A stretch of DNA of 11,709 nucleotides from IMG/VR virus record IMGVR_UViG_2548876944_000019, positions 1-11,709 of that record; one strand, written 5' to 3'. Source of the DNA: a virus. Taxonomy: Duplodnaviria > Heunggongvirae > Uroviricota > Caudoviricetes. Positions 1 to 11,709 of the stretch are shown here, piece by piece (positions within the stretch are counted from its first letter, which is position 1; every line of letters begins with the position of its first letter). A model generated the notes under the pieces. That model was not told where the DNA came from. It saw nothing but the letters and a program-made list of their open reading frames with translations, and searched no databases. The translations under genes were made by a program, and so were the position numbers.

Positions 1-267
1 ATGCGCAGAAAAGAATCAAACGTTAGCAGTTTGCCGGAACTCACCAATTTTGAGGTAAGCTATTCCCTAGTTACCAATGAAGTTTACTTGTCTGCATCCT
101 TCACTGATAACATGGCCTGTATACCAAACTGGCCCTTACAAGAATTTCCGGATCAACTAATATGCATTTCTCGAGCAAAAGCTATTGCCCTAATCGAAGA
201 GCTCCAGAAGACCATCGACTATATGGACGCAGGAATCGATCGACAATCAGGTAGCCTGCTCCAGTAG
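1..267 (+). CDS. Hypothetical protein (88 aa) in AT-rich cargo island
   Basis: ORF opens with ATG at window position 1 and stops at 265-267. Composition is AT-rich, unlike the tail genes. No motif recognised. The true start is uncertain because the ORF touches the window edge. Confidence 0.35.
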   Translation: MRRKESNVSSLPELTNFEVSYSLVTNEVYLSASFTDNMACIPNWPLQEFPDQLICISRAKAIALIEELQKTIDYMDAGIDRQSGSLLQ

Positions 268-400
268 CTGGCGAGTTTTATACTCGTTCCCTGCAACAAT
301 GGGCTTTTGGTAAGGCACTCACAAATAAGGAATTCGTTAAGGTTTTTGTTCTGGAGACTCTGAAAGATACAAGGAATCTGTTGATGGCTGGTTTGATCAT

Positions 401-441
401 ACTAATTAATATATTGTCAGACTCACAATATATTAATTAGT
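401..441. promoter_or_regulatory. Perfect 16-bp inverted repeat with 9-bp spacer, candidate operator
   Basis: ACTAATTAATATATTG (401-416), spacer TCAGACTCA (417-425), CAATATATTAATTAGT (426-441); the arms are exact reverse complements. It lies in the AT-rich intergenic region about 130 bp upstream of the 281-aa ORF. It is too AT-rich to be a stable terminator stem. Confidence 0.5.
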
Positions 442-568
442 GGTAGAACATAAAACCGAGTTCTTGACTTTCAATAGCTATTATATGCGATCAACAACCT
501 TAACCACCTCCTTATATTTTATGAGACACTCAAACAATTTAAATTTATGAGCAAAGGAAAATAATAAA

Positions 569-1414
569 GTGAATAAAAATCCCTGGGATATTCCAGCATG
601 GCACGCTCTGGGCCGAGAAGCATCTTTAGTTACACAGCTCATTGGTTCTGGGGCAACAGCCATAGGTAAAGCCAATTATGCAGACAAAATAGGTGAATAT
701 TACACAGCATTTTTTGGGCTTTCTGTAGGTTTTGAGAGACTTGCTAAACTAATACTTGTTGCGCACTATGCCATTGAACACAAAGGGAAAATGCCTGACG
801 AGAATATTGTAAGAAAATTTGGACATAAGCTCATTGAATTAACCAACGAGGTTGATAGCATTTCTAAAAAAATGCAACTATCTCTGAGATATTCACGTCC
901 TACACATAAAATTACCTACAAAATACTTGAATGTTTAGATTCCTTTGCTGATGCCCGACGGGGACGTTACGCAAATTTCTCCTCATTAAGCAGCCCCAAT
1001 TTAACCAATAATGAACCTATTAATAAATGGTGGGGAGAAGTAGCCGAGAGTATCCTTGAAAAACATTATTATTATACAGTTGAACAAAGACGTGTTGAAG
1101 AAAATGCTAGGTTTATCAATGCCACTCTTTCACCGTATACAACGGTCATGTATATGAATGAAAGTACCAACATTATGCAAGACCTTATATCAGCCTCCAT
1201 CCGTACTGGACAAAATACCATTGTTCAAAAGTGGGGAAGATTCTATTCTCTTAGCATCGCTCGTTGGCTTGCCACAGTATTAACAGAACTGTCTGATATA
1301 GCTTCTCATAAATATGGAATAATTAGTTTTTATGGCCTTAGTGAACATTGTTGCAGTTATATAGTTGAAGATAGTTTTTTAAAAAACAGAAAAATATGGC
1401 CACTTCGCCAATAG
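569..1414 (+). CDS. Hypothetical protein (281 aa), candidate accessory or defence cargo gene
   Basis: GTG start at 569 preceded by AAGGA at 554-558; stop TAG at 1412-1414. AT-rich relative to the tail genes. No hydrophobic membrane segments noticed. No family recognised by eye; the only weak hint is one R-x5-H pattern (RYSRPTH). Confidence 0.6.
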   Translation: MNKNPWDIPAWHALGREASLVTQLIGSGATAIGKANYADKIGEYYTAFFGLSVGFERLAKLILVAHYAIEHKGKMPDENIVRKFGHKLIELTNEVDSISKKMQLSLRYSRPTHKITYKILECLDSFADARRGRYANFSSLSSPNLTNNEPINKWWGEVAESILEKHYYYTVEQRRVEENARFINATLSPYTTVMYMNESTNIMQDLISASIRTGQNTIVQKWGRFYSLSIARWLATVLTELSDIASHKYGIISFYGLSEHCCSYIVEDSFLKNRKIWPLRQ

Positions 1415-1418
1415 TTAA

Positions 1419-1733
1419 CTAGAAAATCTGCATAAGGGGGAGAAATCCCCCACCTGTAATAACATCACTACTAAAATTAACACCTCGTTCGCGCAACTCC
1501 TCTACCAGCACGACAAGATGCCGCATACTGCGCCCCAGTCGGTCCAGTTTCCAGACCACCAGCGTGTCACCTGCCGATAATGTCCTGAGCAGCTTTTTCA
1601 GTCCTGGTCTGTCGGACTTTGTACCGCTTATCTTGTCTTCAAAAATCAGCTCACATCCTGCACAGTTCAGCGCATTACGTTGTAGATCTGTGTTCTGGTC
1701 ATTTGTTGACACACGTACATAGCCAATAAGCAT
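1419..1733 (-). pseudogene. pin: Truncated serine DNA invertase (Din family, Pin/Gin/Hin/Cin-like); catalytic N-terminal domain only
   Basis: N-terminus MLIGYVRVSTNDQNTDLQRNAL...VVWKLDRLGRS...LRERGVNF matches the resolvase/invertase catalytic domain as I recall it, with the catalytic Ser in the RVST motif. After residue 87 (nt about 1473) the sequence becomes unrelated (SSDVITGGGFLPLMQIF) and stops at 104 aa. Full-length Din invertases are about 180-190 aa and end in an HTH DNA-binding domain. Confidence 0.85.
1436..1451. terminator. GC stem-loop (GGGGGA-GAAA-TCCCCC), possible terminator at the junction of convergent genes
   Basis: 6-bp perfect stem with a GAAA loop, 22 nt after the stop of the 281-aa ORF and inside the non-native 3' tail of the truncated invertase ORF. 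The plus strand lacks a U-tract after it; the minus strand has a partial T-rich run (TTATGCAGATTTTCT). Confidence 0.3.
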
Positions 1734-1787
1734 GAGAAATAACCCTGTAAAAATCCGGGATCATGCCATCTGAGCCGAATAACTGCA

Positions 1788-1813
1788 TTTTCTAAAAGGT
1801 TGGTTTGGGAGAA
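1788..1813. other. Left inversion crossover site (gix/pix/hix-like, 26 bp), core TT at 1800-1801
   Basis: TTTTCTAAAAGG TT GGTTTGGGAGAA. The reverse complement (TTCTCCCAAACC AA CCTTTTAGAAAA) resembles the Din-family site pattern TTCxxxxAAACC-AA-GGTTTxxGAxAA recalled from hix/gix. It lies 55 bp upstream of the invertase start, as in Mu and e14. Confidence 0.6.
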
Positions 1814-2293
1814 GGCTCTGCATTACCTGTTGGTGTCCCTGTTCCGTGGCCTTCAGCCACCCCGCCGACAGGCTGGCTGAAATGCAACGGTGCGGCTTTT
1901 TCTGCTGAAGAATACCCGGAACTGGCAAAGGCTTACCCGACAAATAAATTGCCTGATTTACGCGGTGAGTTTATTCGTGGCTGGGATGACGGACGTGGAG
2001 TGGATAACGGAAGGGGATTATTAACGCTTCAGGACGGTGCGATTGTCAGTCATAACCACTATTGGGGAATCTGGACTTCACGAACTAACGACCAGACTCT
2101 GGGAAGTTTTTCAGGCACCACGATTTTAAAACAAATCACGCCCCTGTCTCCGGCCATTGACTTCGATAATTACCAAATTCCCAACCCGGCTATTACAGAG
2201 GGTGGTGTTGTTGCGGCAACGACTAAACCTGCAGGTGCGAATGAAACACGCCCACGAAATGTCGCTTTTAACTATATTGTGAGGGCTGCATAA
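1796..2293 (+). CDS. Alternative tail-fibre C-terminal (receptor-binding) segment, Sv'-like, without its own start codon
   Basis: The frame opens immediately after the TAA at 1793-1795. It has no ATG; the ORF track start at 1805 is TTG with a weak SD. It carries a tail-collar-like motif (GWLKCNGAAFSAEEYPELAKAYP). The stop TAA at 2291-2293 overlaps the ATG of the downstream Tfa gene. Confidence 0.7.
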   Translation, partial: KVGLGEGSALPVGVPVPWPSATPPTGWLKCNGAAFSAEEYPELAKAYPTNKLPDLRGEFIRGWDDGRGVDNGRGLLTLQDGAIVSHNHYWGIWTSRTNDQTLGSFSGTTILKQITPLSPAIDFDNYQIPNPAITEGGVVAATTKPAGANETRPRNVAFNYIVRAA

Positions 2294-2895
2294 TGAATAA
2301 CGCAGAATTAAACAGTGAATTAATTGCCACTATGGCAGGAGAAATTACTGTTTATAACTTTGACGTCATGAGTCGGGAGTATATTTCAGCTTCAACTGAA
2401 TATCTTGCTGTTGGTGTCGGCATTCCGGCATATTCCTGTTTAGATGCTCCAGGCACCTACAAAGCTGGTTATGCAATCTGCCGCTCTGCAGATTTTAACT
2501 CATGGGAATATGTACCAGACCATCGCGGTGAAATCGTCTATAACACCGAAACGGGAGACGCCAAAGAAATCACAACTCCGGGTGATTACCCCGAAAAAAC
2601 AACCACTATCGCCCCGTTAACGCCATACGATAAATGGGATGGTGAGAAATGGGTGACGGATACTGAGACACAGCATAGCGCCGCAGTAGACGCGGCAGAA
2701 GCACAACGTCAGTCACTGATTGATACTGCAATGGCTTCCATTAGTCTGATTCAACTGAAATTGCAGGCCGGGCGGAAGCTGATGCAGGCAGAGACCACCC
2801 GACTTAACACTGTGCTGGATTACATTGACGCGGTGACGGCAACAGATACCAGTACCGCGCCGGATGTCATCTGGCCTGAACTGCCGGAGGAGTAG
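2293..2895 (+). CDS. Tail-fibre assembly protein (Tfa/U'-type chaperone) paired with the alternative fibre tip
   Basis: 200 aa, coupled to the upstream Sv' frame by a TAATG overlap. The C-terminus (LDYIDAVTATDTSTAPDVIWPELPEE) is the conserved Tfa C-terminal motif. It sits convergent to the other Tfa gene. Confidence 0.8.
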   Translation: MNNAELNSELIATMAGEITVYNFDVMSREYISASTEYLAVGVGIPAYSCLDAPGTYKAGYAICRSADFNSWEYVPDHRGEIVYNTETGDAKEITTPGDYPEKTTTIAPLTPYDKWDGEKWVTDTETQHSAAVDAAEAQRQSLIDTAMASISLIQLKLQAGRKLMQAETTRLNTVLDYIDAVTATDTSTAPDVIWPELPEE

Positions 2896-3313
2896 GCCAT
2901 TCAATATCTGGCGCACTGGAAGTATCGACCAGTTCCAGTGCGTCCAGATAATCCAGCCACAAATTATATTGCGCCAGTTCGTCACCTTTCAGACGACCAA
3001 TAGCGGCTTTACCGGGCCACTGCTTACTATTGATATAATAGTTAGCCTGCTCAATACGGGACCTTTTTTCGGCGTCAGCAGTTCTAACAAGTTCTTCGTG
3101 AGTCGGTTTAGGTTCATCTACCCATTCAGGGAAGCCATCATTCCCTGCTGCACGTATCTTGCCATCCGGTGCATTTTCTGCTTTCCAGGAGATAAATCCG
3201 TCCTCATCAAAATCGACTCCCTCATCAGGCCATTGCCCGCTTGCCAGGTAGCTATCCTTAAGGGAGTAAGGGAAAAATTCGTTTGTAACTGCTGAGTATC
3301 TGTATTTGGTCAT
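2867..3313 (-). CDS. Tail-fibre assembly protein (Tfa/U-type chaperone) for the currently expressed fibre
   Basis: 148 aa, immediately downstream of the fibre gene (fibre stop codon 3316-3318, ATG at 3313). The C-terminus (LWLDYLDALELVDTSSAPDIEWPTPP) is the conserved Tfa motif. Confidence 0.85.
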   Translation of the reverse strand: MTKYRYSAVTNEFFPYSLKDSYLASGQWPDEGVDFDEDGFISWKAENAPDGKIRAAGNDGFPEWVDEPKPTHEELVRTADAEKRSRIEQANYYINSKQWPGKAAIGRLKGDELAQYNLWLDYLDALELVDTSSAPDIEWPTPPAVQAR

Positions 3314-3315
3314 AT

Positions 3316-3987
3316 TTATTTCCCTATGGCTATCCAGGCAATTTCTGCTCCTGGAGTGCTCCAGTTGGCAATTCGGATTGTTGAAAGATCAGCTGACGAC
3401 ACGCCAACTGGTTTTGAAGGTGAGGGATCTGAACCCCAGAACGAAGCAAGAACAATATAGCCTGAGGTAGTAAAAGGGATTGGCAGCGTCCTTACCGCAA
3501 TCTGTCCTGCCGCCATGGTTGTCCTCCCGCTCTGAATAATTGTCCCGTCTGGAAACTTTACCCACCCACTACCACTGGTCCATGCAGACATGTCTGGTAG
3601 TTGGTTAGCACCTGTTCCGACATCTCGTTTCGCCGCTTCGCCCAAACCAAGATTTGAGAGGGCCGTTTTCACCGTGCCATCCGATTTGATATCACCAAAC
3701 GGATTCTTGCGGCTCAGGTATTCAACAGCAAACCCCGATCCCAGCAATTCAACAAAACCGGGCAGATCACCATTATCAAGCACATCCCGTTGCGTTTTGT
3801 CACTTACAAACTGGGCCAGAGCTGCAGCAATAAAGCTGGCCTGCCGAATAACCTTATTGACTTGCGCACTGGATGCTTTCCCTGCTGTAAATCCGGATAA
3901 AAGCGCAGGCAACGCTTCCCATTCCTCCTGCGACATAACATTGGCATTTTTACCCGTTGCGAATGCTTTAAAGTCATTTTTTGCCAT
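3316..3987 (-). CDS. Tail-fibre protein (constant N-terminal part fused to the currently oriented variable C-terminal part)
   Basis: The ATG at 3987-3985 overlaps the TGA of the upstream gene (ATGA), so it is preferred over the in-frame ATG at 4005 given in the ORF track. The right crossover site lies in frame inside it (ALSNLGLGE). It is followed by a Tfa gene. Confidence 0.8.
3637..3662. other. Right inversion crossover site (inverted relative to the left site), core AA at 3649-3650
   Basis: TTCGCCCAAACC AA GATTTGAGAGGG. Its reverse complement matches the left site at 13 of 14 positions across core plus inner half (TTGGTTTGGG[C/A]GAA). It lies inside the tail-fibre gene at the constant/variable junction. 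Confidence 0.6.
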
Positions 3988-4667
3988 CAGAGTAATACTC
4001 CCCATGCCCCTACATCAAAACCACTGATGAATTCGTTATCCATATCAAAACCAAAAAATTTTGAACCTTCCGATGGGGTTTCCACCGAAGGTGTTTCAAT
4101 GCCACCCGCCCACACCCCGGCGGCTTTTACTGTGAGATATCCCTGTTTAATTGCAGCAATTAACTCACGCGATACATCTGAAATATCAGTATCAGGAAAG
4201 ACCCAGACCGATATCGTCATGTCCTGGTTATCGACAATCTGCATTCGCAGCCCGGATCCTGCTGTTGCCGCGTCAAGAATTGCCGGAAGCGAATCATTCC
4301 GTCCGTCCCAGTTATTAATCGCAATCTTCGCTTTAAGAATGACACGATAAGTTTCATCGCTGAGATACATGTATCCAGAATCAGGATCATATGGCCCCTG
4401 CCATACCCCCTGATCATATCCAAGCCCGTCGGTATCCCAGCTGAAATAGACACCTGAGATAGGCTGGCTGACAACACGGCTACGTCCGATCCACAATCCC
4501 AGAATGTCAAGTTGCACACCAACCGCAGAGTCAATATCAAATGCAGTAATCAGCCCTCTGGTGGCAGCCGCAACATCAATAAGTGGCCGGGTCATCAGAT
4601 CAACATGCGCAAGAAATTTAGGTTTGGTGGCGTGGTAGTTCGTGATTAGTTCGGTGTATTTGCTCAT
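3987..4667 (-). CDS. Baseplate/tail protein, gpI-like (Mu gp48 / P2 gpI position)
   Basis: 226 aa; sits between the gpJ-like gene and the tail fibre; ATGA overlaps at both ends. Assigned by position and size, not by a recognised motif. Confidence 0.6.
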
Positions 4668-5863
4668 GACTCCACCGTTATAACGATATTTTCCGGGGTA
4701 CAGGACGCAGATTCGTTGTATCTGATATCAATGTTTGATGACGACAAAGCCCCCGGGGATTTCCCAATCGTCAGTTCCTGAATATCGTAATAGCGTGCAT
4801 TACCGCCACTCACCACGCCAAGATTCGCCGGTGAGTAAATGCGACTTAAAAGGACCGAATTACCAATCATCAGACTATTGATATAGTCGGAAATAGCCTG
4901 CTGGATCTGTTGCCCTATCTGTGAGGTATAACCCGTAAAAACTTTTAATTTAATCCGGGCATAAACAGGTACATCACTGGAACGCGAGAATTTGATTACA
5001 TGGGGATTGCCGTATTTATCCGGAACCGTAACGGATGTTGTACCGTGAGTGGCTGTCCCCTGGCCTTTATTCCCTCTGATAGCCTGAGCAATATCCGTCA
5101 CATCACCGCCATCCACAATTACAGCAACAGAGTGTGGCGGTAACCCGTTACCGTCCTCCGAACCAGTATCGTTTTCATAGAGTTTGTGGCGGGTTACACC
5201 GGTAACATTAGAAACGGCACCATCCAGTGCTTCAAATGGGGTTATTGATGGCAACGCAACACTTTGCGACTGGCGGATACGTAACTCCGCATCAGTTTCT
5301 GCTGGAGTGCCTACAGTAGCTGCAGCAGGATTGGTTACCGAAACCCAGCCACGGGTTGGCGTATTAATTTCAGTGATAGTTCCAGCCAGCGCCGCCACTG
5401 CACCACTGACGGAACATTTTGCGGTCGCCATCACTGTACCATCCACGCCGACCACCACTGAAGCAGGCAAACGCCATATCACATTATTACTGTCTTTCAC
5501 GCTGCCATTAATGATGGTTGTTCCGGCAGTTCCTGTAAGAAGCAAATCAACCGTAGAGTTCGTCGCGCCTTTACGTGAAATACCATTTATTTTCACGTTG
5601 CTGGTCAGTGCAGCCCCATAGCCGGTTGCCGGTGAAAAACAGTTGTAGACAGTTATCGCCATATTATTGGCATCATGAATCGCCAGCGCCATCAGAGCCA
5701 CCATCTGGCCGTCTTTGCTGTCCGGTTCGAGGTAGGCATCACTGCCATAAACCTGCTGAAAATAGCTAATCAGGGTGCTGAGTATCGTCTGATAATCAGG
5801 CGCACTGATCCCCTCCGCGGTTACCTTTGCAGATAAACCGAGAGAATCAAGGTTCAGAGCCAT
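4664..5863 (-). CDS. Baseplate protein, gpJ-like (Mu gp47 position)
   Basis: 399 aa; follows the gpW-like gene with a TAATG overlap and precedes the gpI-like gene with an ATGA overlap. Assigned by synteny. Confidence 0.6.
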   Translation of the reverse strand: MALNLDSLGLSAKVTAEGISAPDYQTILSTLISYFQQVYGSDAYLEPDSKDGQMVALMALAIHDANNMAITVYNCFSPATGYGAALTSNVKINGISRKGATNSTVDLLLTGTAGTTIINGSVKDSNNVIWRLPASVVVGVDGTVMATAKCSVSGAVAALAGTITEINTPTRGWVSVTNPAAATVGTPAETDAELRIRQSQSVALPSITPFEALDGAVSNVTGVTRHKLYENDTGSEDGNGLPPHSVAVIVDGGDVTDIAQAIRGNKGQGTATHGTTSVTVPDKYGNPHVIKFSRSSDVPVYARIKLKVFTGYTSQIGQQIQQAISDYINSLMIGNSVLLSRIYSPANLGVVSGGNARYYDIQELTIGKSPGALSSSNIDIRYNESASCTPENIVITVES

Positions 5864-6216
5864 TACGCCTCCGATGTAACAGTCGTTATTCCATAGAGAG
5901 TGTCGATTTCAGCGGAAAACATGACACGTCGGGTCGTGGTATCCACCGTCGTATTGAAAGAGAGGATTGATTTAACGCCCCGCGTTTCCAGAATGCGTTT
6001 TCTGATCGCCAGGTTGTAAGTTTCCGGTTTTTGCCTGCCCAGCACGGACTGGATCCACGGAGTCCCCTCGGTGGTGTCGAGAAACCATTGCCCATACCAT
6101 AATTCGAATCGCGTTTTTACCGCCTGCGCCACGGCCTCCGGTGAGTTAATCAGCCAGGTGTCATCACCGCTGCCAAAGGTATAATCGCCATCGGCGTCTT
6201 CACGTCTGTATCGCAT
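5863..6216 (-). CDS. Baseplate wedge protein, gpW/gp25-like
   Basis: 117 aa, a size typical of gpW/gp25. Its C-terminal region resembles P2 gpW as I recall it. It sits between the spike and the gpJ-like gene with overlapping start/stop codons. Confidence 0.55.
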   Translation of the reverse strand: MRYRREDADGDYTFGSGDDTWLINSPEAVAQAVKTRFELWYGQWFLDTTEGTPWIQSVLGRQKPETYNLAIRKRILETRGVKSILSFNTTVDTTTRRVMFSAEIDTLYGITTVTSEA

Positions 6217-6971
6217 CAGTTAGGCGCTCCTGTGTTACCGCCGCCGGTCTGTACTCCGCCGTGCGTGTGCGTCATCAGGCTCTTACCACCAGCTTTTACA
6301 TCGTTAGTCACCGTGACAGGGCCAAGCATCGTCGCGGTGCCGCCGCTTTCGCCCATCCCCTGAGAGAGATTCCCGTTTATTGTCACGTTGCCGTTTAGCG
6401 TGATGGTGGGTGATGTGATCGTGGTTCCTCCTTCTGCTGTCGCCGTCAACGCGCCGGGAGTTTTAACCGTGATATTATGGCCTGCGGCCACTTCCACAAA
6501 CGCAGCGCCATCATCAGTACGCAGCTGCGCGCCACTGGTGCTTATTCCGCTTATTTTCTGCGCCTGAGACTGCGGCCCGACGATACAGAAAGCATCCGAT
6601 AAATCATGCACCCGGTCGTCGACAGGCTCCTGCACCCCGCCGTTCTGCCACCAGAAATCGATGCAGCGGTCGGCGAAAATCACCAGGCATTCATCCCCGG
6701 CTTTAACCGGAAAAGTCAACGTACAGCCTCCACCGCGCGGAAATACCACTGGCACATCCACCAGCAACGGGTAATTTTTGGTAATGCGGTTACCGTCGTT
6801 ATCCTTTTCAACCGAACGGATAGCTGGCTGCACAACCGCCGTCACCGCGTCGGGATCGAATGACTGAACAATGCCAGGCAAGGCGACACGGATCTGGTTC
6901 TTTGTTGTTTCCCGTTCAGATTTGAATGTTTCGGCAAGGTCGCCGCTGCGGGTCTGGTCAGATACTGCCAT
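6216..6971 (-). CDS. Baseplate central spike protein, gpV-like
   Basis: 251 aa with a C-terminal beta-helix-like repeat run (ITVKTPGALTATAEGGTTITSPTITLNGNVTINGNL) and a THTHGG (HxH) apex motif near the C-terminus, as in gpV-type spikes. Confidence 0.75.
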   Translation of the reverse strand: MAVSDQTRSGDLAETFKSERETTKNQIRVALPGIVQSFDPDAVTAVVQPAIRSVEKDNDGNRITKNYPLLVDVPVVFPRGGGCTLTFPVKAGDECLVIFADRCIDFWWQNGGVQEPVDDRVHDLSDAFCIVGPQSQAQKISGISTSGAQLRTDDGAAFVEVAAGHNITVKTPGALTATAEGGTTITSPTITLNGNVTINGNLSQGMGESGGTATMLGPVTVTNDVKAGGKSLMTHTHGGVQTGGGNTGAPN

Positions 6972-6990
6972 TTAGTAGGCTCCAGAAAGC

Positions 6991-7016
6991 AAAAAACCCG
7001 CCGGGTGGCGGGTTTT
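6991..7016 (-). terminator. Rho-independent terminator downstream of the lipoprotein gene, inside the tail operon
   Basis: Perfect 10-bp stem AAAACCCGCC / GGCGGGTTTT (6993-7002 and 7007-7016) with a 4-nt loop. On the minus strand the hairpin is followed by a T-rich run (TTTTTTGCTTTCT). It lies between the lipoprotein stop (7037) and the spike start (6971). Confidence 0.7.
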
Positions 7017-7036
7017 ATGTGACTAATTTGATCTTT

Positions 7037-7762
7037 TCAGTTTATAAGCCCCATCTTACCGGCGCTTCGATAGTTAATTACATCGCCTGAAGAGCCGCAA
7101 GGCACAGCTACAGTCGACATTTTGACAAATCCTTTACCGCCCTGCTTTTGGCATAAAGTGGCATGCATTTTTGCTAAACGCGCAGCATGGCCAAAATCAA
7201 TTTTGGTTCCGTAAGTTGAATCTCGTAGAGCTGCTTTTTTTGCAATTCCGGTAATATTTTTGTCTTTAATTACAGATGCAAACAAACTCAAATCATTTCC
7301 AATTTGATTGAAGCAAGTACGATTAATATCAACATCGGCATACGCTGAAATGCGTTTGCAATCTGAGATCTGAGAAAGCACAGATGTGTTAACTAGTTGC
7401 AAATTTAATTTGTAGTCACCGACATAGGTATAAACTTTGTTAGGGTCCGTGGTTCCCGGATAACGAGTTACGAATGGAATGCTGTTGTACGCATCTCGCA
7501 AAGATTCTGCCCCCTTACTTGTAAGCTCGTTCCCAACACCAGCAACGATAACCTCTGGATGTGAAACTTCAAATTGAGACTTTTCTTCGCGCTGTATTTG
7601 AAGCCTGCTTTTCTGGCTCTCCTCAACTTGCTTATCGTACGCTTGTTTTTCTTCATTTTTTTGGGATAGCCATTTTTCCTGCGCTTTAGCACCATTAGGA
7701 TCCCAACTACATGAAGTTAAAAAAAGAGAAAATACGATTGTGGTTATCGCAAGCCTGCTCAC
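7037..7762 (-). CDS. Predicted outer-membrane lipoprotein (241 aa), moron inserted in the baseplate operon
   Basis: GTG start at 7762 with GAGG 9 nt upstream. Signal peptide ends in lipobox LTSC with Ser at +2. A charged linker (KAQEKWLSQKNEEKQAYDKQVEESQK...) is followed by a four-Cys globular region. The gene is visibly AT-richer than the flanking tail genes and is followed by its own terminator. Confidence 0.75.
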   Translation of the reverse strand: MSRLAITTIVFSLFLTSCSWDPNGAKAQEKWLSQKNEEKQAYDKQVEESQKSRLQIQREEKSQFEVSHPEVIVAGVGNELTSKGAESLRDAYNSIPFVTRYPGTTDPNKVYTYVGDYKLNLQLVNTSVLSQISDCKRISAYADVDINRTCFNQIGNDLSLFASVIKDKNITGIAKKAALRDSTYGTKIDFGHAARLAKMHATLCQKQGGKGFVKMSTVAVPCGSSGDVINYRSAGKMGLIN

Positions 7763-7764
7763 TA

Positions 7765-8829
7765 TTATGCACCTCGATTCATCGCTGACTGGCTAGGAAT
7801 ATCACTAGCACCTCGAGCAAAGCACATCATGTCCATGTACCACGCCTGGCCCCTTGTGTCACCAGTGTACATAATCCCGCGCACAATATAAACGCCATCC
7901 GTTGCGATGCTGGCAGGTTGTGCTGTGGTGCCGCTGAGCGTGATATTACCGTCCGTGTTCTGGTCGGTGATCTGCCCACCAGCCATCGCGATATCATTGT
8001 TCGACAGCGCGGTGCGGTACACGGAAGCCTGATCCAGCTGAATAAGCCCGTTAACCCGGATGTTCGGATTAATCAGCGCACGGACGTTTACACCGTTGCC
8101 GATAGTCTGCTGCGGCATGCCAATAAGCCCGGTGGCGCTGTTGAGCACAATCGCGTCGTGAACATACTCGTTATTCGCCACCATCTGGCGCTGACCGTCC
8201 ACAAATTGCCATGTTGCGCCACATTGTCCGGCCACGTTATCCATAAGATGCCGTGTCATGCCGAACAGCACCCGCCCTCGAGGGAATACGGTAGCAGGCA
8301 TTTCAGGCGTCAGTCCTTCGGTCGCGCCTTTGGCCTCAAAGTCTTTCATCAGCGCACGGTTCACATCTGCGACCGTGTAACCGGCCGCCAGCGTCTGCGA
8401 GGTTATACTGGTGGCAAATGCCAGATCCGTATCTGCTGCCTGAATCAGGACATAGGAATCAATAGGGCTGTCTTTTCCTGTGACCGAGTAGCGAATTTCT
8501 CCGCTGAAAATCAGCCCGTAGTTGCGGCCATCACTCTGGCCCACATCTGCCGCGTCGACTTCACGCACGGTCCCGACGTCGCTTGCCGCCACCTCCGGCG
8601 CGATACCGTCGTAACCGGCAATCAGCCGCACTTTCGAAAACTCCTGCCCGGTAATTCGGTTCACAGTATCTGCCGAGAGGTTATAAATTTTGATAGTCCC
8701 TACCCGGGACGCGCTGCTGATGTTGAACCAGTCGATCGTAAAGGTGACTTTGAAATCACTTAGCTCAATTCCCTGACCGTTCCCGTCCACAAGCTGCAGC
8801 TCGAAATGTCTCATCCAGTTCTGTGACAT
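7765..8829 (-). CDS. Baseplate hub / tail protein (Mu gp44 / P2 gpD-like by position and size)
   Basis: 354 aa; ATG at 8829. Located between the small tail assembly ORFs and the spike, where hub proteins sit in Mu-type tails. No motif verified. Confidence 0.55.
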   Translation of the reverse strand: MSQNWMRHFELQLVDGNGQGIELSDFKVTFTIDWFNISSASRVGTIKIYNLSADTVNRITGQEFSKVRLIAGYDGIAPEVAASDVGTVREVDAADVGQSDGRNYGLIFSGEIRYSVTGKDSPIDSYVLIQAADTDLAFATSITSQTLAAGYTVADVNRALMKDFEAKGATEGLTPEMPATVFPRGRVLFGMTRHLMDNVAGQCGATWQFVDGQRQMVANNEYVHDAIVLNSATGLIGMPQQTIGNGVNVRALINPNIRVNGLIQLDQASVYRTALSNNDIAMAGGQITDQNTDGNITLSGTTAQPASIATDGVYIVRGIMYTGDTRGQAWYMDMMCFARGASDIPSQSAMNRGA

Positions 8830-8831
8830 GC

Positions 8832-9134
8832 TTACTCCGTTGATACCAGTAAATGACTGCGACCGCCCAGATCAGTTTTCGTGGGATAATCCTGTGTGTT
8901 GTCATCGCAGACCACCACCAGCTTAAAACCAAGCCCCATACAGGCGTACTGCGCCAGCAGATCAGCGCCAGTGACGAGAGGAATACCGGAGATTACCGGC
9001 TCTCCTCTGTCGTTCTGCAGGTCCATAATCCAGTAAGGATCGCGCCATATGATGCTAATCCGCCAGGTGACACCACCCAGGACGATGCTGAACTGCTGGT
9101 TGTCCGCTGTCAGCGGAATTTCCTGAATTGTCAT
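8832..9134 (-). CDS. Small tail/baseplate assembly protein (100 aa), function unassigned
   Basis: ATG at 9134 overlaps the TAA of the upstream ORF; it ends 2 nt before the hub ATG. Typical coupled small tail gene. Confidence 0.5.
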   Translation of the reverse strand: MTIQEIPLTADNQQFSIVLGGVTWRISIIWRDPYWIMDLQNDRGEPVISGIPLVTGADLLAQYACMGLGFKLVVVCDDNTQDYPTKTDLGGRSHLLVSTE

Positions 9135-9721
9135 TAGCCGCCTCCCAGTAATGACGCCACGTTACCCGTGATGCTTTTCAGCAGTGAAGTATCTGGAGGC
9201 TTTGTGGTTTTGTTACCGCTATTCTGTACCGCCGACGTGCTGGCCCCTTCCTTCATGTTGGTTTTATCCGCGACGGTAATCTTCTGTGTCCGGGAGATAA
9301 TGACCTCCCTCAGGGTGAGGACGGCGGACAGGACGTTTTCGGTTGTCTTGTCCGTCGTTACTTCCAGCGCCCGGATCAACATGTTGCTGTACAGCCGTTT
9401 ACCGGTTACCACATCGAAGGGGATACAGCTTTCCTGCAGATCCAGTAGCTCCTGATACGTCTGCTGAGGACTCAGGCCGAGCAGGCTGGTAGCCGTCAGA
9501 TTACTGGCAAAATCCAGCAATGCGCCGCCACCGGCGAAACCAACCTCCATCACCACTTCTGACGGTTTTTTATAGGCATGATCAGCGACAGCGGCCCCGA
9601 CCTCTACCGGATGCTCTGTTATTTCAAGCATATCTGTATGCTTCTCTGAAATAACAACACTGGGAACAATCATTCCTATTTTTCTGCTCTGCTGATGAAA
9701 AAGTGTAGAGAGAATATCCAC
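9134..9721 (-). CDS. Tail assembly protein (195 aa), function unassigned
   Basis: GTG start at 9721 overlapping the tape-measure stop (TAGTG), with an SD-like GGTGAGGG just upstream. An internal ATG 16 codons downstream is an alternative start. Confidence 0.5.
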   Translation of the reverse strand: MDILSTLFHQQSRKIGMIVPSVVISEKHTDMLEITEHPVEVGAAVADHAYKKPSEVVMEVGFAGGGALLDFASNLTATSLLGLSPQQTYQELLDLQESCIPFDVVTGKRLYSNMLIRALEVTTDKTTENVLSAVLTLREVIISRTQKITVADKTNMKEGASTSAVQNSGNKTTKPPDTSLLKSITGNVASLLGGG

Positions 9722-11709
9722 TAACCCACCCTCACCTGATTACTTCGCATGACCTGAGCATTTGCAGACTGTTGCCGACGTGCAACCTCATTACCGACAG
9801 CGTGCGGATCTCCGCCACCGTAAATGTGGTAAGTATTTTGCTGGTTAACCTCTGTCATTTTGCCACTAATTCCCGCCACGGCAGCCTTATTAATCAGCTC
9901 TCGAGAATAGATATTTCTTCCATTCTCATGCTGGATAATGCTGCTCATCAATGCTGACATGGTTTGCGGATCGCTCATATTCAGGGCAGCCCGGGGATCC
10001 ACTCCCAGTCGTTGCGATACAGCCCTGATATACGCAGTTGTGTTGTTATTATCAGACGCAGGTGCCCAGGTAGAGATAATTTTCTCCACACTGTTTATTC
10101 CCCGTCCGGCGTACAGCATTAACTGACGAGCAAGAGCCCGTAATCCATCAAAAGCAGTTTCAAATCTGGCAAATCGCCCGCCCGGGCGTTCAAGAGAAGC
10201 CCCTGCCTGACCAGCAAAATTAAGGTTTCCCGGATTGTTATTCCGTTCTCCTCGTTTCGTAGCCTGTGCATATTGTTCCGGCTCATCATCACCAAACCAG
10301 CCGCGTACCGTCCGGCCCACACTGCGGGGATCGAATCCCCAGTGCTCTTTAATCCAGTCGGCAGTACTGTTAGCGCTGTCTGTAACCATCGGCATCGCTG
10401 ACGGATTTTCGCTGCCCTGATTAAGTATCTGTTTGCCGATGCTGACGGCATCAGCCCAGCGGCCATCTTTGATAGCGTTGAGCAGGTCGGCGATCATGTT
10501 CAGCATTTTGCTGAATTCGCCCATCTGGTCGATGAAGTTGCTGAAATCCCACTTCAGGGACCATGATTTGGGGTCAATATTGAGCAGTTTCGCCAGCGCT
10601 TTCACCAGGTCGTTAACGGTCGTTTTAAGGTCACGAACCATCTTCAGCGCGGCATCGACCTCCGGTTTCCACTTGCCCCAGTCAATCAGGCTGTCGCCGC
10701 CTTCCTTCCAGGTCTGATAGTCCTCCCACAGGAGGGCAATACCCGCCGCCAGCGCGGTAATGAGGCCAATCGGCGACATCCAGAACGTACTGTTCAGAAT
10801 GCGCAGCGCAATCGTCAGTGCGCCAAACAGCGAGATCAACTCCCGCGTTTGCTTATCCAGCGATTGCCACCAGGTGATAAGGCCTGATGTCCCCTCAATC
10901 AGTCTGAAGAACAGCCGCCCGATAATATCCCCGAGCGCCAGAATGCCTTTTATGGCTTTCGTCAGGGTCTGCTCGATACGAGGGAAGTTGTCCAGGATAT
11001 GGCGGCGCAGGGTGTCCAGCGAACCCGCAAGCCCCCCCGCAAGATTAGAGCCGATTTTGTCACGGGCCATGCCTGCCATCGAGCCAAACTCACGCAGGGA
11101 GGTCATAAATTTGTTGGAGCTTCTGGCCGCCTCGTCAGCATTGAAGCCGATAGCTTTCGCCATTGCGCTGTACTGCCCGGAGAAGCCACCCACACCCCGG
11201 CGCATCGCCATAAGGGTATTTTCGTCAATGCCCAGCATCTGCGCATACTGGTTAGCCCGGTAATACGGCATGCTGCTGAGTTTCTGTCCAACGCCCGTAA
11301 AAATAGCGGCCATGTCACGCATGTTACCGCTGGCATCACGGGTCTGTACGCCCAGGCGATTCAGAAAGCCTTCTGCACCGGGATTGTTACGAATAAACCG
11401 GGATAGGCTTTCCAGAGAAGATCGCGCAGCGTCCACGCTGCCGCCAACCTGCGAAACCGCATAGCCAATAGACTGAATTCCCTGGACTGTCGCGCCGGTG
11501 CGCTGTGACGCCCAGTAAAGATTATCCAGGCCGGAGGCGATCTTAGCCGTGAAGGCCACCACGGACAACGCAGCTCCTTCAACAGCCAGCCCCATTTTGA
11601 TGACATTTGCAGTTGTACCGGCGAGGACAGAACCGAACTTTTTCGCTCCTGCATCATCCACACTGAAGCCAAGCGAGACGAGGAAATCTTTAATAGTTTC
11701 AGCGTTCAT
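9721..11709 (-). CDS. Tail tape measure protein (662 aa as given)
   Basis: Long, alpha-helical, Ala/Gly-rich protein with a central hydrophobic stretch (ISLFGALTIALRILNSTFWMSPIGLITALAAGIALLW), immediately upstream of the baseplate genes. The ATG sits at the window edge (11709-11707), so completeness cannot be proven. Confidence 0.8.
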   Translation of the reverse strand: MNAETIKDFLVSLGFSVDDAGAKKFGSVLAGTTANVIKMGLAVEGAALSVVAFTAKIASGLDNLYWASQRTGATVQGIQSIGYAVSQVGGSVDAARSSLESLSRFIRNNPGAEGFLNRLGVQTRDASGNMRDMAAIFTGVGQKLSSMPYYRANQYAQMLGIDENTLMAMRRGVGGFSGQYSAMAKAIGFNADEAARSSNKFMTSLREFGSMAGMARDKIGSNLAGGLAGSLDTLRRHILDNFPRIEQTLTKAIKGILALGDIIGRLFFRLIEGTSGLITWWQSLDKQTRELISLFGALTIALRILNSTFWMSPIGLITALAAGIALLWEDYQTWKEGGDSLIDWGKWKPEVDAALKMVRDLKTTVNDLVKALAKLLNIDPKSWSLKWDFSNFIDQMGEFSKMLNMIADLLNAIKDGRWADAVSIGKQILNQGSENPSAMPMVTDSANSTADWIKEHWGFDPRSVGRTVRGWFGDDEPEQYAQATKRGERNNNPGNLNFAGQAGASLERPGGRFARFETAFDGLRALARQLMLYAGRGINSVEKIISTWAPASDNNNTTAYIRAVSQRLGVDPRAALNMSDPQTMSALMSSIIQHENGRNIYSRELINKAAVAGISGKMTEVNQQNTYHIYGGGDPHAVGNEVARRQQSANAQVMRSNQVRVG

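Follow-up and report, generated by a model that had tools for sequence, protein, structure and literature searches.

The 241-residue lipoprotein encoded between the baseplate hub and the membrane-puncturing spike in the virus record IMGVR_UViG_2548876944_000019 (Caudoviricetes; positions 1 to 11,709, a stretch of 11,709 nucleotides (nt) referred to here as the window) is very probably an accessory exported protein encoded in a cargo hotspot. The gene belongs to a familiar class, prophage cargo encoding an envelope protein; more interesting than the gene itself is the architecture of the slot that it occupies, in which two exported proteins, the lipoprotein and an unrelated protein of about 113 residues (SP113), are mutually exclusive. 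We propose, tentatively and by analogy with known systems, that the lipoprotein is horizontally exchanged cargo of a lambdoid temperate myovirus and would exclude phages of the same tail type from the envelope after adsorption. Envelope-altering prophage cargo decides which phages infect clinical Escherichia coli, Klebsiella and Salmonella, and bears on phage therapy and prophage ecology.

The hub-to-spike slot and its exported proteins

Slot occupancy was determined in 77 IMG/VR loci selected for a hub identity of 96% or more to that of the window. SP113 is the first gene of the slot in 63 of these loci and the lipoprotein in 7, and the two never occur together (0/77); with one further locus, in which this place is taken by a 153-residue Sec-signal protein weakly related to the lipoprotein core, an exported protein stands in the first position in 71 of the 77 close relatives. 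The flanks of the slot were matched by 306 of 5,426 complete E. coli genomes (about 6%), just 12 of which contain the lipoprotein gene. A conserved virion baseplate protein was rejected on these frequencies, and the original prediction was right that the lipoprotein is not a normal baseplate component, since most near-identical tails lack its gene.

Homology to relatives with other cargo ends within the last codons of the hub on the left (Table 1) and, on the right, precisely where the terminator stem begins at its 5' side. Cargo is missing from Acinetobacter phage AbTJ, where the hub is directly followed by the spike, and from PSTCR3 and L012 (L numbers denote related loci), where the two genes overlap. 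In other relatives the slot is a hotspot with cargo that includes the YafO toxin with an upstream partner, a pair of TPR-like and weakly HEPN-like proteins, and DUF4282 and DUF2335 membrane proteins; the commonest class comprises 26 of the 77 loci, and in the one locus examined from it the additional cargo is the TPR-like/HEPN-like pair. With its fixed boundaries, two exclusive exported proteins and defence-like modules (YafO, HEPN-like pairs) behind them, the locus is a compact testable system. In the cryo-electron microscopy paper on E217, gp41 (hub) and gp43 (tip) were built and gp42 is unmentioned (PMC10329688). The tail end of the hub co-varies with the cargo, reading ...MMCFARGA... with the lipoprotein and ...MMCEARGA... 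with SP113, a split (window versus L002, L007, L008, L010, L004, L033 and L034) that holds even at 48% identity between lipoprotein alleles and could reflect either linkage or functional coupling.

SP113 has a cleavable Sec signal and two conserved Cys, and its AlphaFold2 (AF2) model has a predicted local distance difference test score (pLDDT) of 56. Homology to the lipoprotein was considered and rejected, as alignment of the lipoprotein family with SP113 by hhalign paired the signal peptides only. In nine relatives inspected in detail, SP113 is the first gene after the hub, followed by variable cargo (a DUF4282 two-helix membrane protein, a second secreted protein, YafO with its partner, and others), and it is the usual first gene in this place in SEN34-, Mulock- and YP3-like phages and prophages. 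SP113 has no assigned family; clustering at 90% identity gives more than 384 clusters for it and only 15 for the lipoprotein. Directly past the lipoprotein stop codon of L004-L006 lies an out-of-frame remnant of the SP113 C-terminus (NSMNAPRVYGSYDCQKIK, ending in a stop; the SP113 C-terminus for comparison is NSMDAPKIIGSFPCKKI), and a similar remnant is found behind the lipoprotein gene in L047-L049. These remnants in two lineages indicate that the lipoprotein gene displaced most of an ancestral SP113 gene.

The 153-residue protein (L063 4068-4529) has a Sec rather than a lipoprotein signal and occupies the first slot position behind a hub that is 98% identical. Its similarity to the lipoprotein core is weak (hhalign probability 26%) and centres on a two-Cys/KD-x-x-IS motif; by sequence, it may represent a soluble branch of the lipoprotein family.

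The lipoprotein gene starts with a GTG codon 2 nt past the stop codon of the hub. The lipoprotein signal (LTSC, with Ser and not Asp at residue +2), the charged linker and the four-Cys globular domain of the original prediction were all confirmed: Cys18 is invariant in 15 homologues with identities down to 40%, residues 22-67 are modelled as one helix, and among the Cys of the mature domain C135 and C150 are invariant and C204 and C222 are kept in at least 90% of the sequences. LTSC conforms to the lipobox pattern [LVI][ASTVI][GAS]C with an invariant Cys. Of 33 related loci scanned, 29 encode a lipobox and four have the variant LNGC, and a lipobox is also present in nearly all remote representatives of the family, non-phage homologues included. 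The AF2 model of the lipoprotein has a mean pLDDT of 86 and a predicted template modelling score of 0.73. In some homologues the spacer is substituted by Pro/Ser-rich linkers or by an extra domain. According to the +2 rule of E. coli, Ser at this position predicts Lol-dependent sorting to the outer membrane. From this rule and the AF2 model we infer a protein anchored in the outer membrane, with a spacer of about 7 nm placing the globular domain near the peptidoglycan layer; the four conserved Cys suggest a domain suited to the oxidising periplasm.

The gene had also been described as AT-richer than its neighbours, and calculation gave a G + C content of 41.2% (34.7% at third codon positions, GC3), compared with 54.9% for the hub (GC3 62.5%) and 56.5% for the spike (GC3 60.7%). 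Every other 726-nt segment of the tail module has a higher value (minimum 46.0%; z = -3.2), and a deficit of 8-17 points relative to the neighbours recurs in all 33 loci. The gene is a horizontal acquisition. Its dN/dS of 0.10-0.13 between window-type phages (structural genes, 0.04-0.12) indicates that it is functional and maintained by purifying selection.

The notion of a one-off insertion into the middle of a structural operon did not survive the comparison with relatives, as this slot is also taken by homologues, with identities down to 36-45%, in Serratia, Limnobaculum and other enterobacterial phages. In all 28 viral and 2 genome loci (Serratia, Limnobaculum) from two collection scans, the lipoprotein gene lies directly past the hub and before the spike. 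The family is small and almost confined to this tail type. A profile search of 1.84 billion representative proteins yielded just 36 remote relatives, including long forms of 330-378 residues with an extra N-terminal domain; one remote homologue (P0041) is encoded between plug and hub in the same tail type. L001 combines the lipoprotein gene with a quite different fibre region, in line with linkage to the tail tip rather than to the fibres. Lipoprotein alleles swap independently of the backbone: L033 has a hub and a spike that are 92% and 96% identical and a lipoprotein that is just 48% identical.

The original prediction had left the domain unassigned, and homology and fold searches likewise gave no known relative. 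Neither the single sequence nor the profile matched anything in Pfam (E <= 0.01), NCBIfam or the PDB sequences; the PADLOC defence-system models gave no family at E <= 0.1, a BFVD fold search gave nothing at E <= 0.001, and tblastn against 50,697 phage records gave no match. The single weak match in PHROGs (E = 0.005) is to an unnamed family and covers the signal and the linker. The lipoprotein therefore falls outside the Llp, Cor, TraT and Ltp families. The label 'HMG-box domain-containing protein' given by PGAP to some near-identical copies is unsupported by the Pfam search. A spanin was rejected as well, because an Rz-like spanin is encoded in a separate lysis cassette (SEN34, E. coli prophage) and the lipoprotein has no C-terminal hydrophobic segment in either its sequence or its AF2 model.

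Terminator and transcription of the slot

A strong terminator follows the lipoprotein gene, as had been predicted (10-bp stem with 6 G-C pairs, then a T-run; RNAfold, -18.2 kcal/mol), but it belongs to the backbone and not to this gene: relatives with quite different cargo have an identical terminator and identical 21 nt leading to the spike ATG. Analogous terminators are present in L003 and L004. The label 'moron' can be kept in part. In the sense of Juhala and Hendrix, as defined in PMC3594210, the gene is accessory and inserted between two genes that adjoin each other in related phages (AbTJ, L012 and PSTCR3; close relatives have other cargo), and its base composition deviates (41.2% versus 55-56% G + C); the terminator, however, is common to all cargo variants, a convincing promoter was not detected, and the gene is packed against the hub.

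Both Salmonella phage SEN34 and the prophage of E. coli NRZ14408 encode a Q antiterminator together with a complete lysis cassette (holin, endolysin and Rz-type spanin). Late transcription in lambdoid phages with such an antiterminator should ignore intrinsic terminators, so that a terminator in a Q-antiterminated tail operon should stop only transcripts unmodified by Q, which is the logic described for morons (PMC3594210). The conservation of the terminator within a Q operon suggests that the cargo slot is transcribed in the lysogen too.

A weak sigma-70-like element inside the hub codons (Table 1) recurs in L032, L033, L040 and L042 and, from its sequence, may be either a slot promoter or a coding coincidence. 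When the 3' end of the hub was searched for a conserved promoter, just 8-9 of 12 positions matched, at sites coinciding with conserved codons. The gap between lipoprotein and hub genes measures -8 to +11 nt in 29 of 32 hub-to-spike loci scanned, and the three exceptions are upstream-start artefacts of the open reading frame (ORF) search.

Possible roles of the lipoprotein

Under the exclusion hypothesis, the lipoprotein would be exported by Sec, lipid-modified at Cys18 and sorted to the inner leaflet of the outer membrane, from which the charged helix of about 46 residues would hold a disulfide-stabilised globular domain in the periplasm, at about the depth of the peptidoglycan. Encoded in the first slot position in place of the commoner SP113, it must be made with the Q-antiterminated late operon, and it would also be made in the lysogen if, as the conserved terminator suggests, the slot is transcribed without antitermination as well. 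From the cell envelope it would bring about superinfection exclusion by hindering the entry of phages with this type of tail, and the expected target would be the tail tip crossing the periplasm, that is the spike, the hub or the tape-measure protein (TMP) with its muralytic C-terminal domain, rather than the fibre receptor.

A periplasmic action after adsorption is suggested by the association of the family with plug, hub and spike and not with fibre genes, and by the other slot occupants, which are exported or defence-like. The last ~230 residues of the TMP match an endolysin structure (7q47_A, 1e-13) and Gp29 of 9vvp (2e-20), and the tail thus carries its own peptidoglycan hydrolase; this endolysin-like domain must work in the periplasm, which points the same way. 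So does AbTJ, a distant relative with this tail type, in which a secreted member of the LprI lysozyme-inhibitor family (L054 366-722; PF07007, 1.2e-9) is encoded on the opposite strand, adjoining the TMP gene. If the exported proteins are tail-tip exclusion factors, the slot shows phages keeping an exclusion gene beside the machinery that it targets; if they are not, the lipoprotein is an ordinary uncharacterised cargo gene. It is conceivable, though doubtful, that the first gene past the hub marks, in this widespread enterobacterial prophage group, a 'periplasmic guard' position filled interchangeably by SP113, the lipoprotein (short or long forms) or a soluble relative. Such guards would form a structurally novel class of post-adsorption exclusion proteins, and genetics could trace their specificity to the adjacent genes for hub, spike and TMP.

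Among known systems, the T4 protein Sp (Spackle) is a periplasmic inhibitor of the tail lysozyme gp5. It would fit as a parallel if the target were the muralytic domain of the TMP, and SP113 is likewise a small periplasmic protein; similarity was not detected, however, and an inhibitor role for the lipoprotein is purely conjectural. TP-J34 Ltp, with its lipid anchor, linker and mainly helical domain, has a similar architecture. This Gram-positive exclusion lipoprotein is reported to target the tape-measure protein, and the likeness would extend to the proposed action on an incoming tail tip or TMP after adsorption (PMC3952083). Only Imm and Sp are listed as blocking DNA injection in PMC11436027, where Cor is also covered. 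HK97 gp15, a tail-operon moron that blocks DNA entry (PMC3594210), resembles the lipoprotein as an accessory envelope protein encoded in the tail operon of a lambdoid, Q-antiterminated phage, with a G + C content unlike that of its neighbours and with relatives outside phages. It differs in being small and located in the inner membrane, and in having a dedicated promoter and terminator and demonstrated prophage expression (PMC3594210), whereas the present gene encodes a 241-residue lipoprotein of unrelated sequence, has no detected promoter and shares a backbone terminator.

Several results weigh against the exclusion hypothesis. The slot contains neither exported protein in about 6 of the 77 close relatives, and a comparison of alleles showed no tendency of the lipoprotein to vary together with the TMP or the spike. 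Some homologues are encoded away from phage tails (L014 by metabolic genes, L015 in an integrase/primase island, L017 at argS-flhE, E = 5e-4); they are long-form or weak relatives and imply that the domain need not act on phage tails. The searches matched the lipoprotein to no exclusion protein in sequence or fold, so that its function is argued from context and analogy. A sigma-70 promoter scan upstream of the lipoprotein gene found no site with at least 9 of 12 matches, and with the gene translationally packed against the hub, expression could be late-only.

Tight packing and the missing promoter would suit a late-only lytic helper, for instance one that keeps the tails of progeny from firing on vesicles or pieces of envelope after lysis or that modifies the envelope late in infection, and so would the regular presence of an exported protein in the first position and a purifying selection as strong as that on structural genes. 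The relatives lacking any exported protein speak against such a helper, as does a lysis cassette that is already complete with a spanin, and late-only transcription would leave little reason for a terminator conserved within a Q-antiterminated operon; on balance we rate this explanation as rather unlikely. The original prediction named receptor masking as a typical mechanism. An outer-membrane lipoprotein would here inactivate the fibre receptor, block the adsorption of superinfecting phages and protect progeny from debris. T5 Llp and Cor of phi80/N15, which inactivate FhuA, are the classic examples in E. coli, and like them the present protein is a lipoprotein predicted to reach the outer membrane, encoded among tail genes and with a plausible role in exclusion. 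Beyond the word lipoprotein, however, nothing was found behind the analogy: Pfam, PHROGs, NCBIfam, PADLOC, PDB and BFVD revealed no homology, and no phage family is similar in sequence or fold. Llp and Cor are about one third the size of the 241-residue protein, whose spacer of ~7 nm would turn the domain away from the outer membrane. Genetic linkage is to hub and spike and not to a receptor-binding protein, fibre genes being invertible and swapped among carriers, and the alternative occupant SP113 is a soluble periplasmic protein. Receptor masking is accordingly improbable.

A lysogenic-conversion factor of benefit to the host and not directed at phages (serum resistance of the Bor/TraT kind, envelope stress, adhesion) would agree with an AT-rich gene for an envelope protein in the prophage of clinical E. 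coli isolates, and with homologues in chromosomal and island contexts. Lambda Bor and plasmid TraT are also outer-membrane lipoproteins carried as cargo, and TraT is similar in length. The complement-resistance and surface-exclusion lipoprotein TraT was nevertheless rejected, as there was no match to Pfam TraT or to other Pfam families, and none in PHROGs apart from the weak unnamed one, and the location of all 30 scan loci in one tail slot argues for a tail-related role, leaving a host-benefit factor only a slim chance. Least plausible by far is a virion protein, either of the baseplate or ejected, that uses its hydrophobic N-terminus for membrane insertion during infection: the gene is co-oriented with and packed between two tail-tip genes, but it is absent from more than 90% of the tails with near-identical hub and spike and has a foreign base composition, while the protein keeps a canonical lipobox even in non-phage homologues and has four conserved Cys that suit an oxidising periplasm.

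Tail module and other features of the window

The window encodes a contractile-tail module of the E217/Pam3 type on its minus strand (Table 1). The nearest named phages by hub identity are Yersinia phage YP3 and Escherichia phages vB_EcoM-689R2 and 606R2 (96%), followed at greater distance by Salmonella phage SEN34 (83%) and Klebsiella phage Mulock (78%). A copy of the region with 98.9% identity is found in E. coli NRZ14408, in a lambdoid prophage between ybhB and ybhC, and RefSeq annotates the same 726-nt coding sequence in the 98.9% identical E. coli copy.

Table 1. Position of genes, protein segments and regulatory elements in the window and, where an L number is given, in related loci
Feature	Position	Strand	Remarks
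Lipoprotein gene	7037-7762	minus	241 aa, GTG start; AT-rich cargo, first position of the hub-to-spike slot
Shine-Dalgarno sequence GAGG	7772-7775	minus	9 nt upstream of GTG, within last hub codons; read from sequence
Signal peptide (aa 1-17) and lipobox	7709-7762	minus	n-region MSR, hydrophobic core LAITTIVFSLF, L-T-S-C; Cys18 codon 7709-7711
Charged spacer (aa 22-67)	7562-7699	minus	E/K/Q-rich; AF2: single 46-residue helix, block pLDDT 68-94, ~7 nm if extended
Globular alpha/beta domain (aa 68-241)	7040-7561	minus	motifs HPEV, FVTR, C(K/Q)R(I/V)SAY, IDFGHAARLAKMH; four conserved Cys
Left slot boundary	7765-7821	minus	last ~18 hub codons; hub ~96% identical to relatives up to there, then diverges
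Weak sigma-70-like element	7864-7892	minus	TTTATA-17-TACACT, 8/12; inside hub codons; below threshold of the stricter scan
Intrinsic terminator	6983-7016 (stem 7016-6993)	minus	AAAACCCGCCACCCGGCGGGTTTT + TTGCTTTCTG; ends 11 nt before spike ATG
SP113 genes in relatives	L002 3425-3766; L007 3017-3361; L019 3566-3904; L021 3516-3863; others
Slot cargo in relatives	L009 3615-4605; L047 4794-5790; L071 4544-5697; L063 4703-5855; L065 3661-4233
TMP gene	9721-11709	minus
TMP C-terminus, last ~230 residues	9724-10410	minus	endolysin-like domain at about aa 485-616
Dit-like protein gene	9134-9721	minus
Plug gene	8832-9134	minus
Baseplate hub gene	7765-8829	minus	upstream neighbour of lipoprotein gene; PHROG 196 'baseplate hub' 2.5e-87; E217_GP41 weak, 5.8e-5
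Membrane-puncturing spike gene	6216-6971	minus	downstream neighbour; N-terminal spike domain PF18352 1.4e-43; Apex motif 4.5e-8
Sheath-initiator-like protein gene	5863-6216	minus
Baseplate J gene	4664-5863	minus
Wedge protein (DUF2612) gene	3987-4667	minus
Tail fibre and fibre-assembly genes			part of the module

An Rfam scan of the window gave no RNA family. The gene at 569-1414 (plus strand) has no match in Pfam, NCBIfam or PADLOC and is regarded as another unassigned cargo gene. Inverted repeats of 24 nt (1791-1814 and 3636-3659, 83% complementary) flank an invertible tail-fibre segment with alternative fibre C-termini and assembly genes on both strands. The adjoining serine invertase ORF (1419-1733) comprises 104 residues with only the Resolvase N-domain, and its shortness indicates that the fibre switch is probably frozen. 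The spike of the window is about 70% identical to those of L022-L029, although their hub, lipoprotein and gp25-like genes are 98-100% identical, and a mosaic joint evidently lies in or after the N-domain of the spike.

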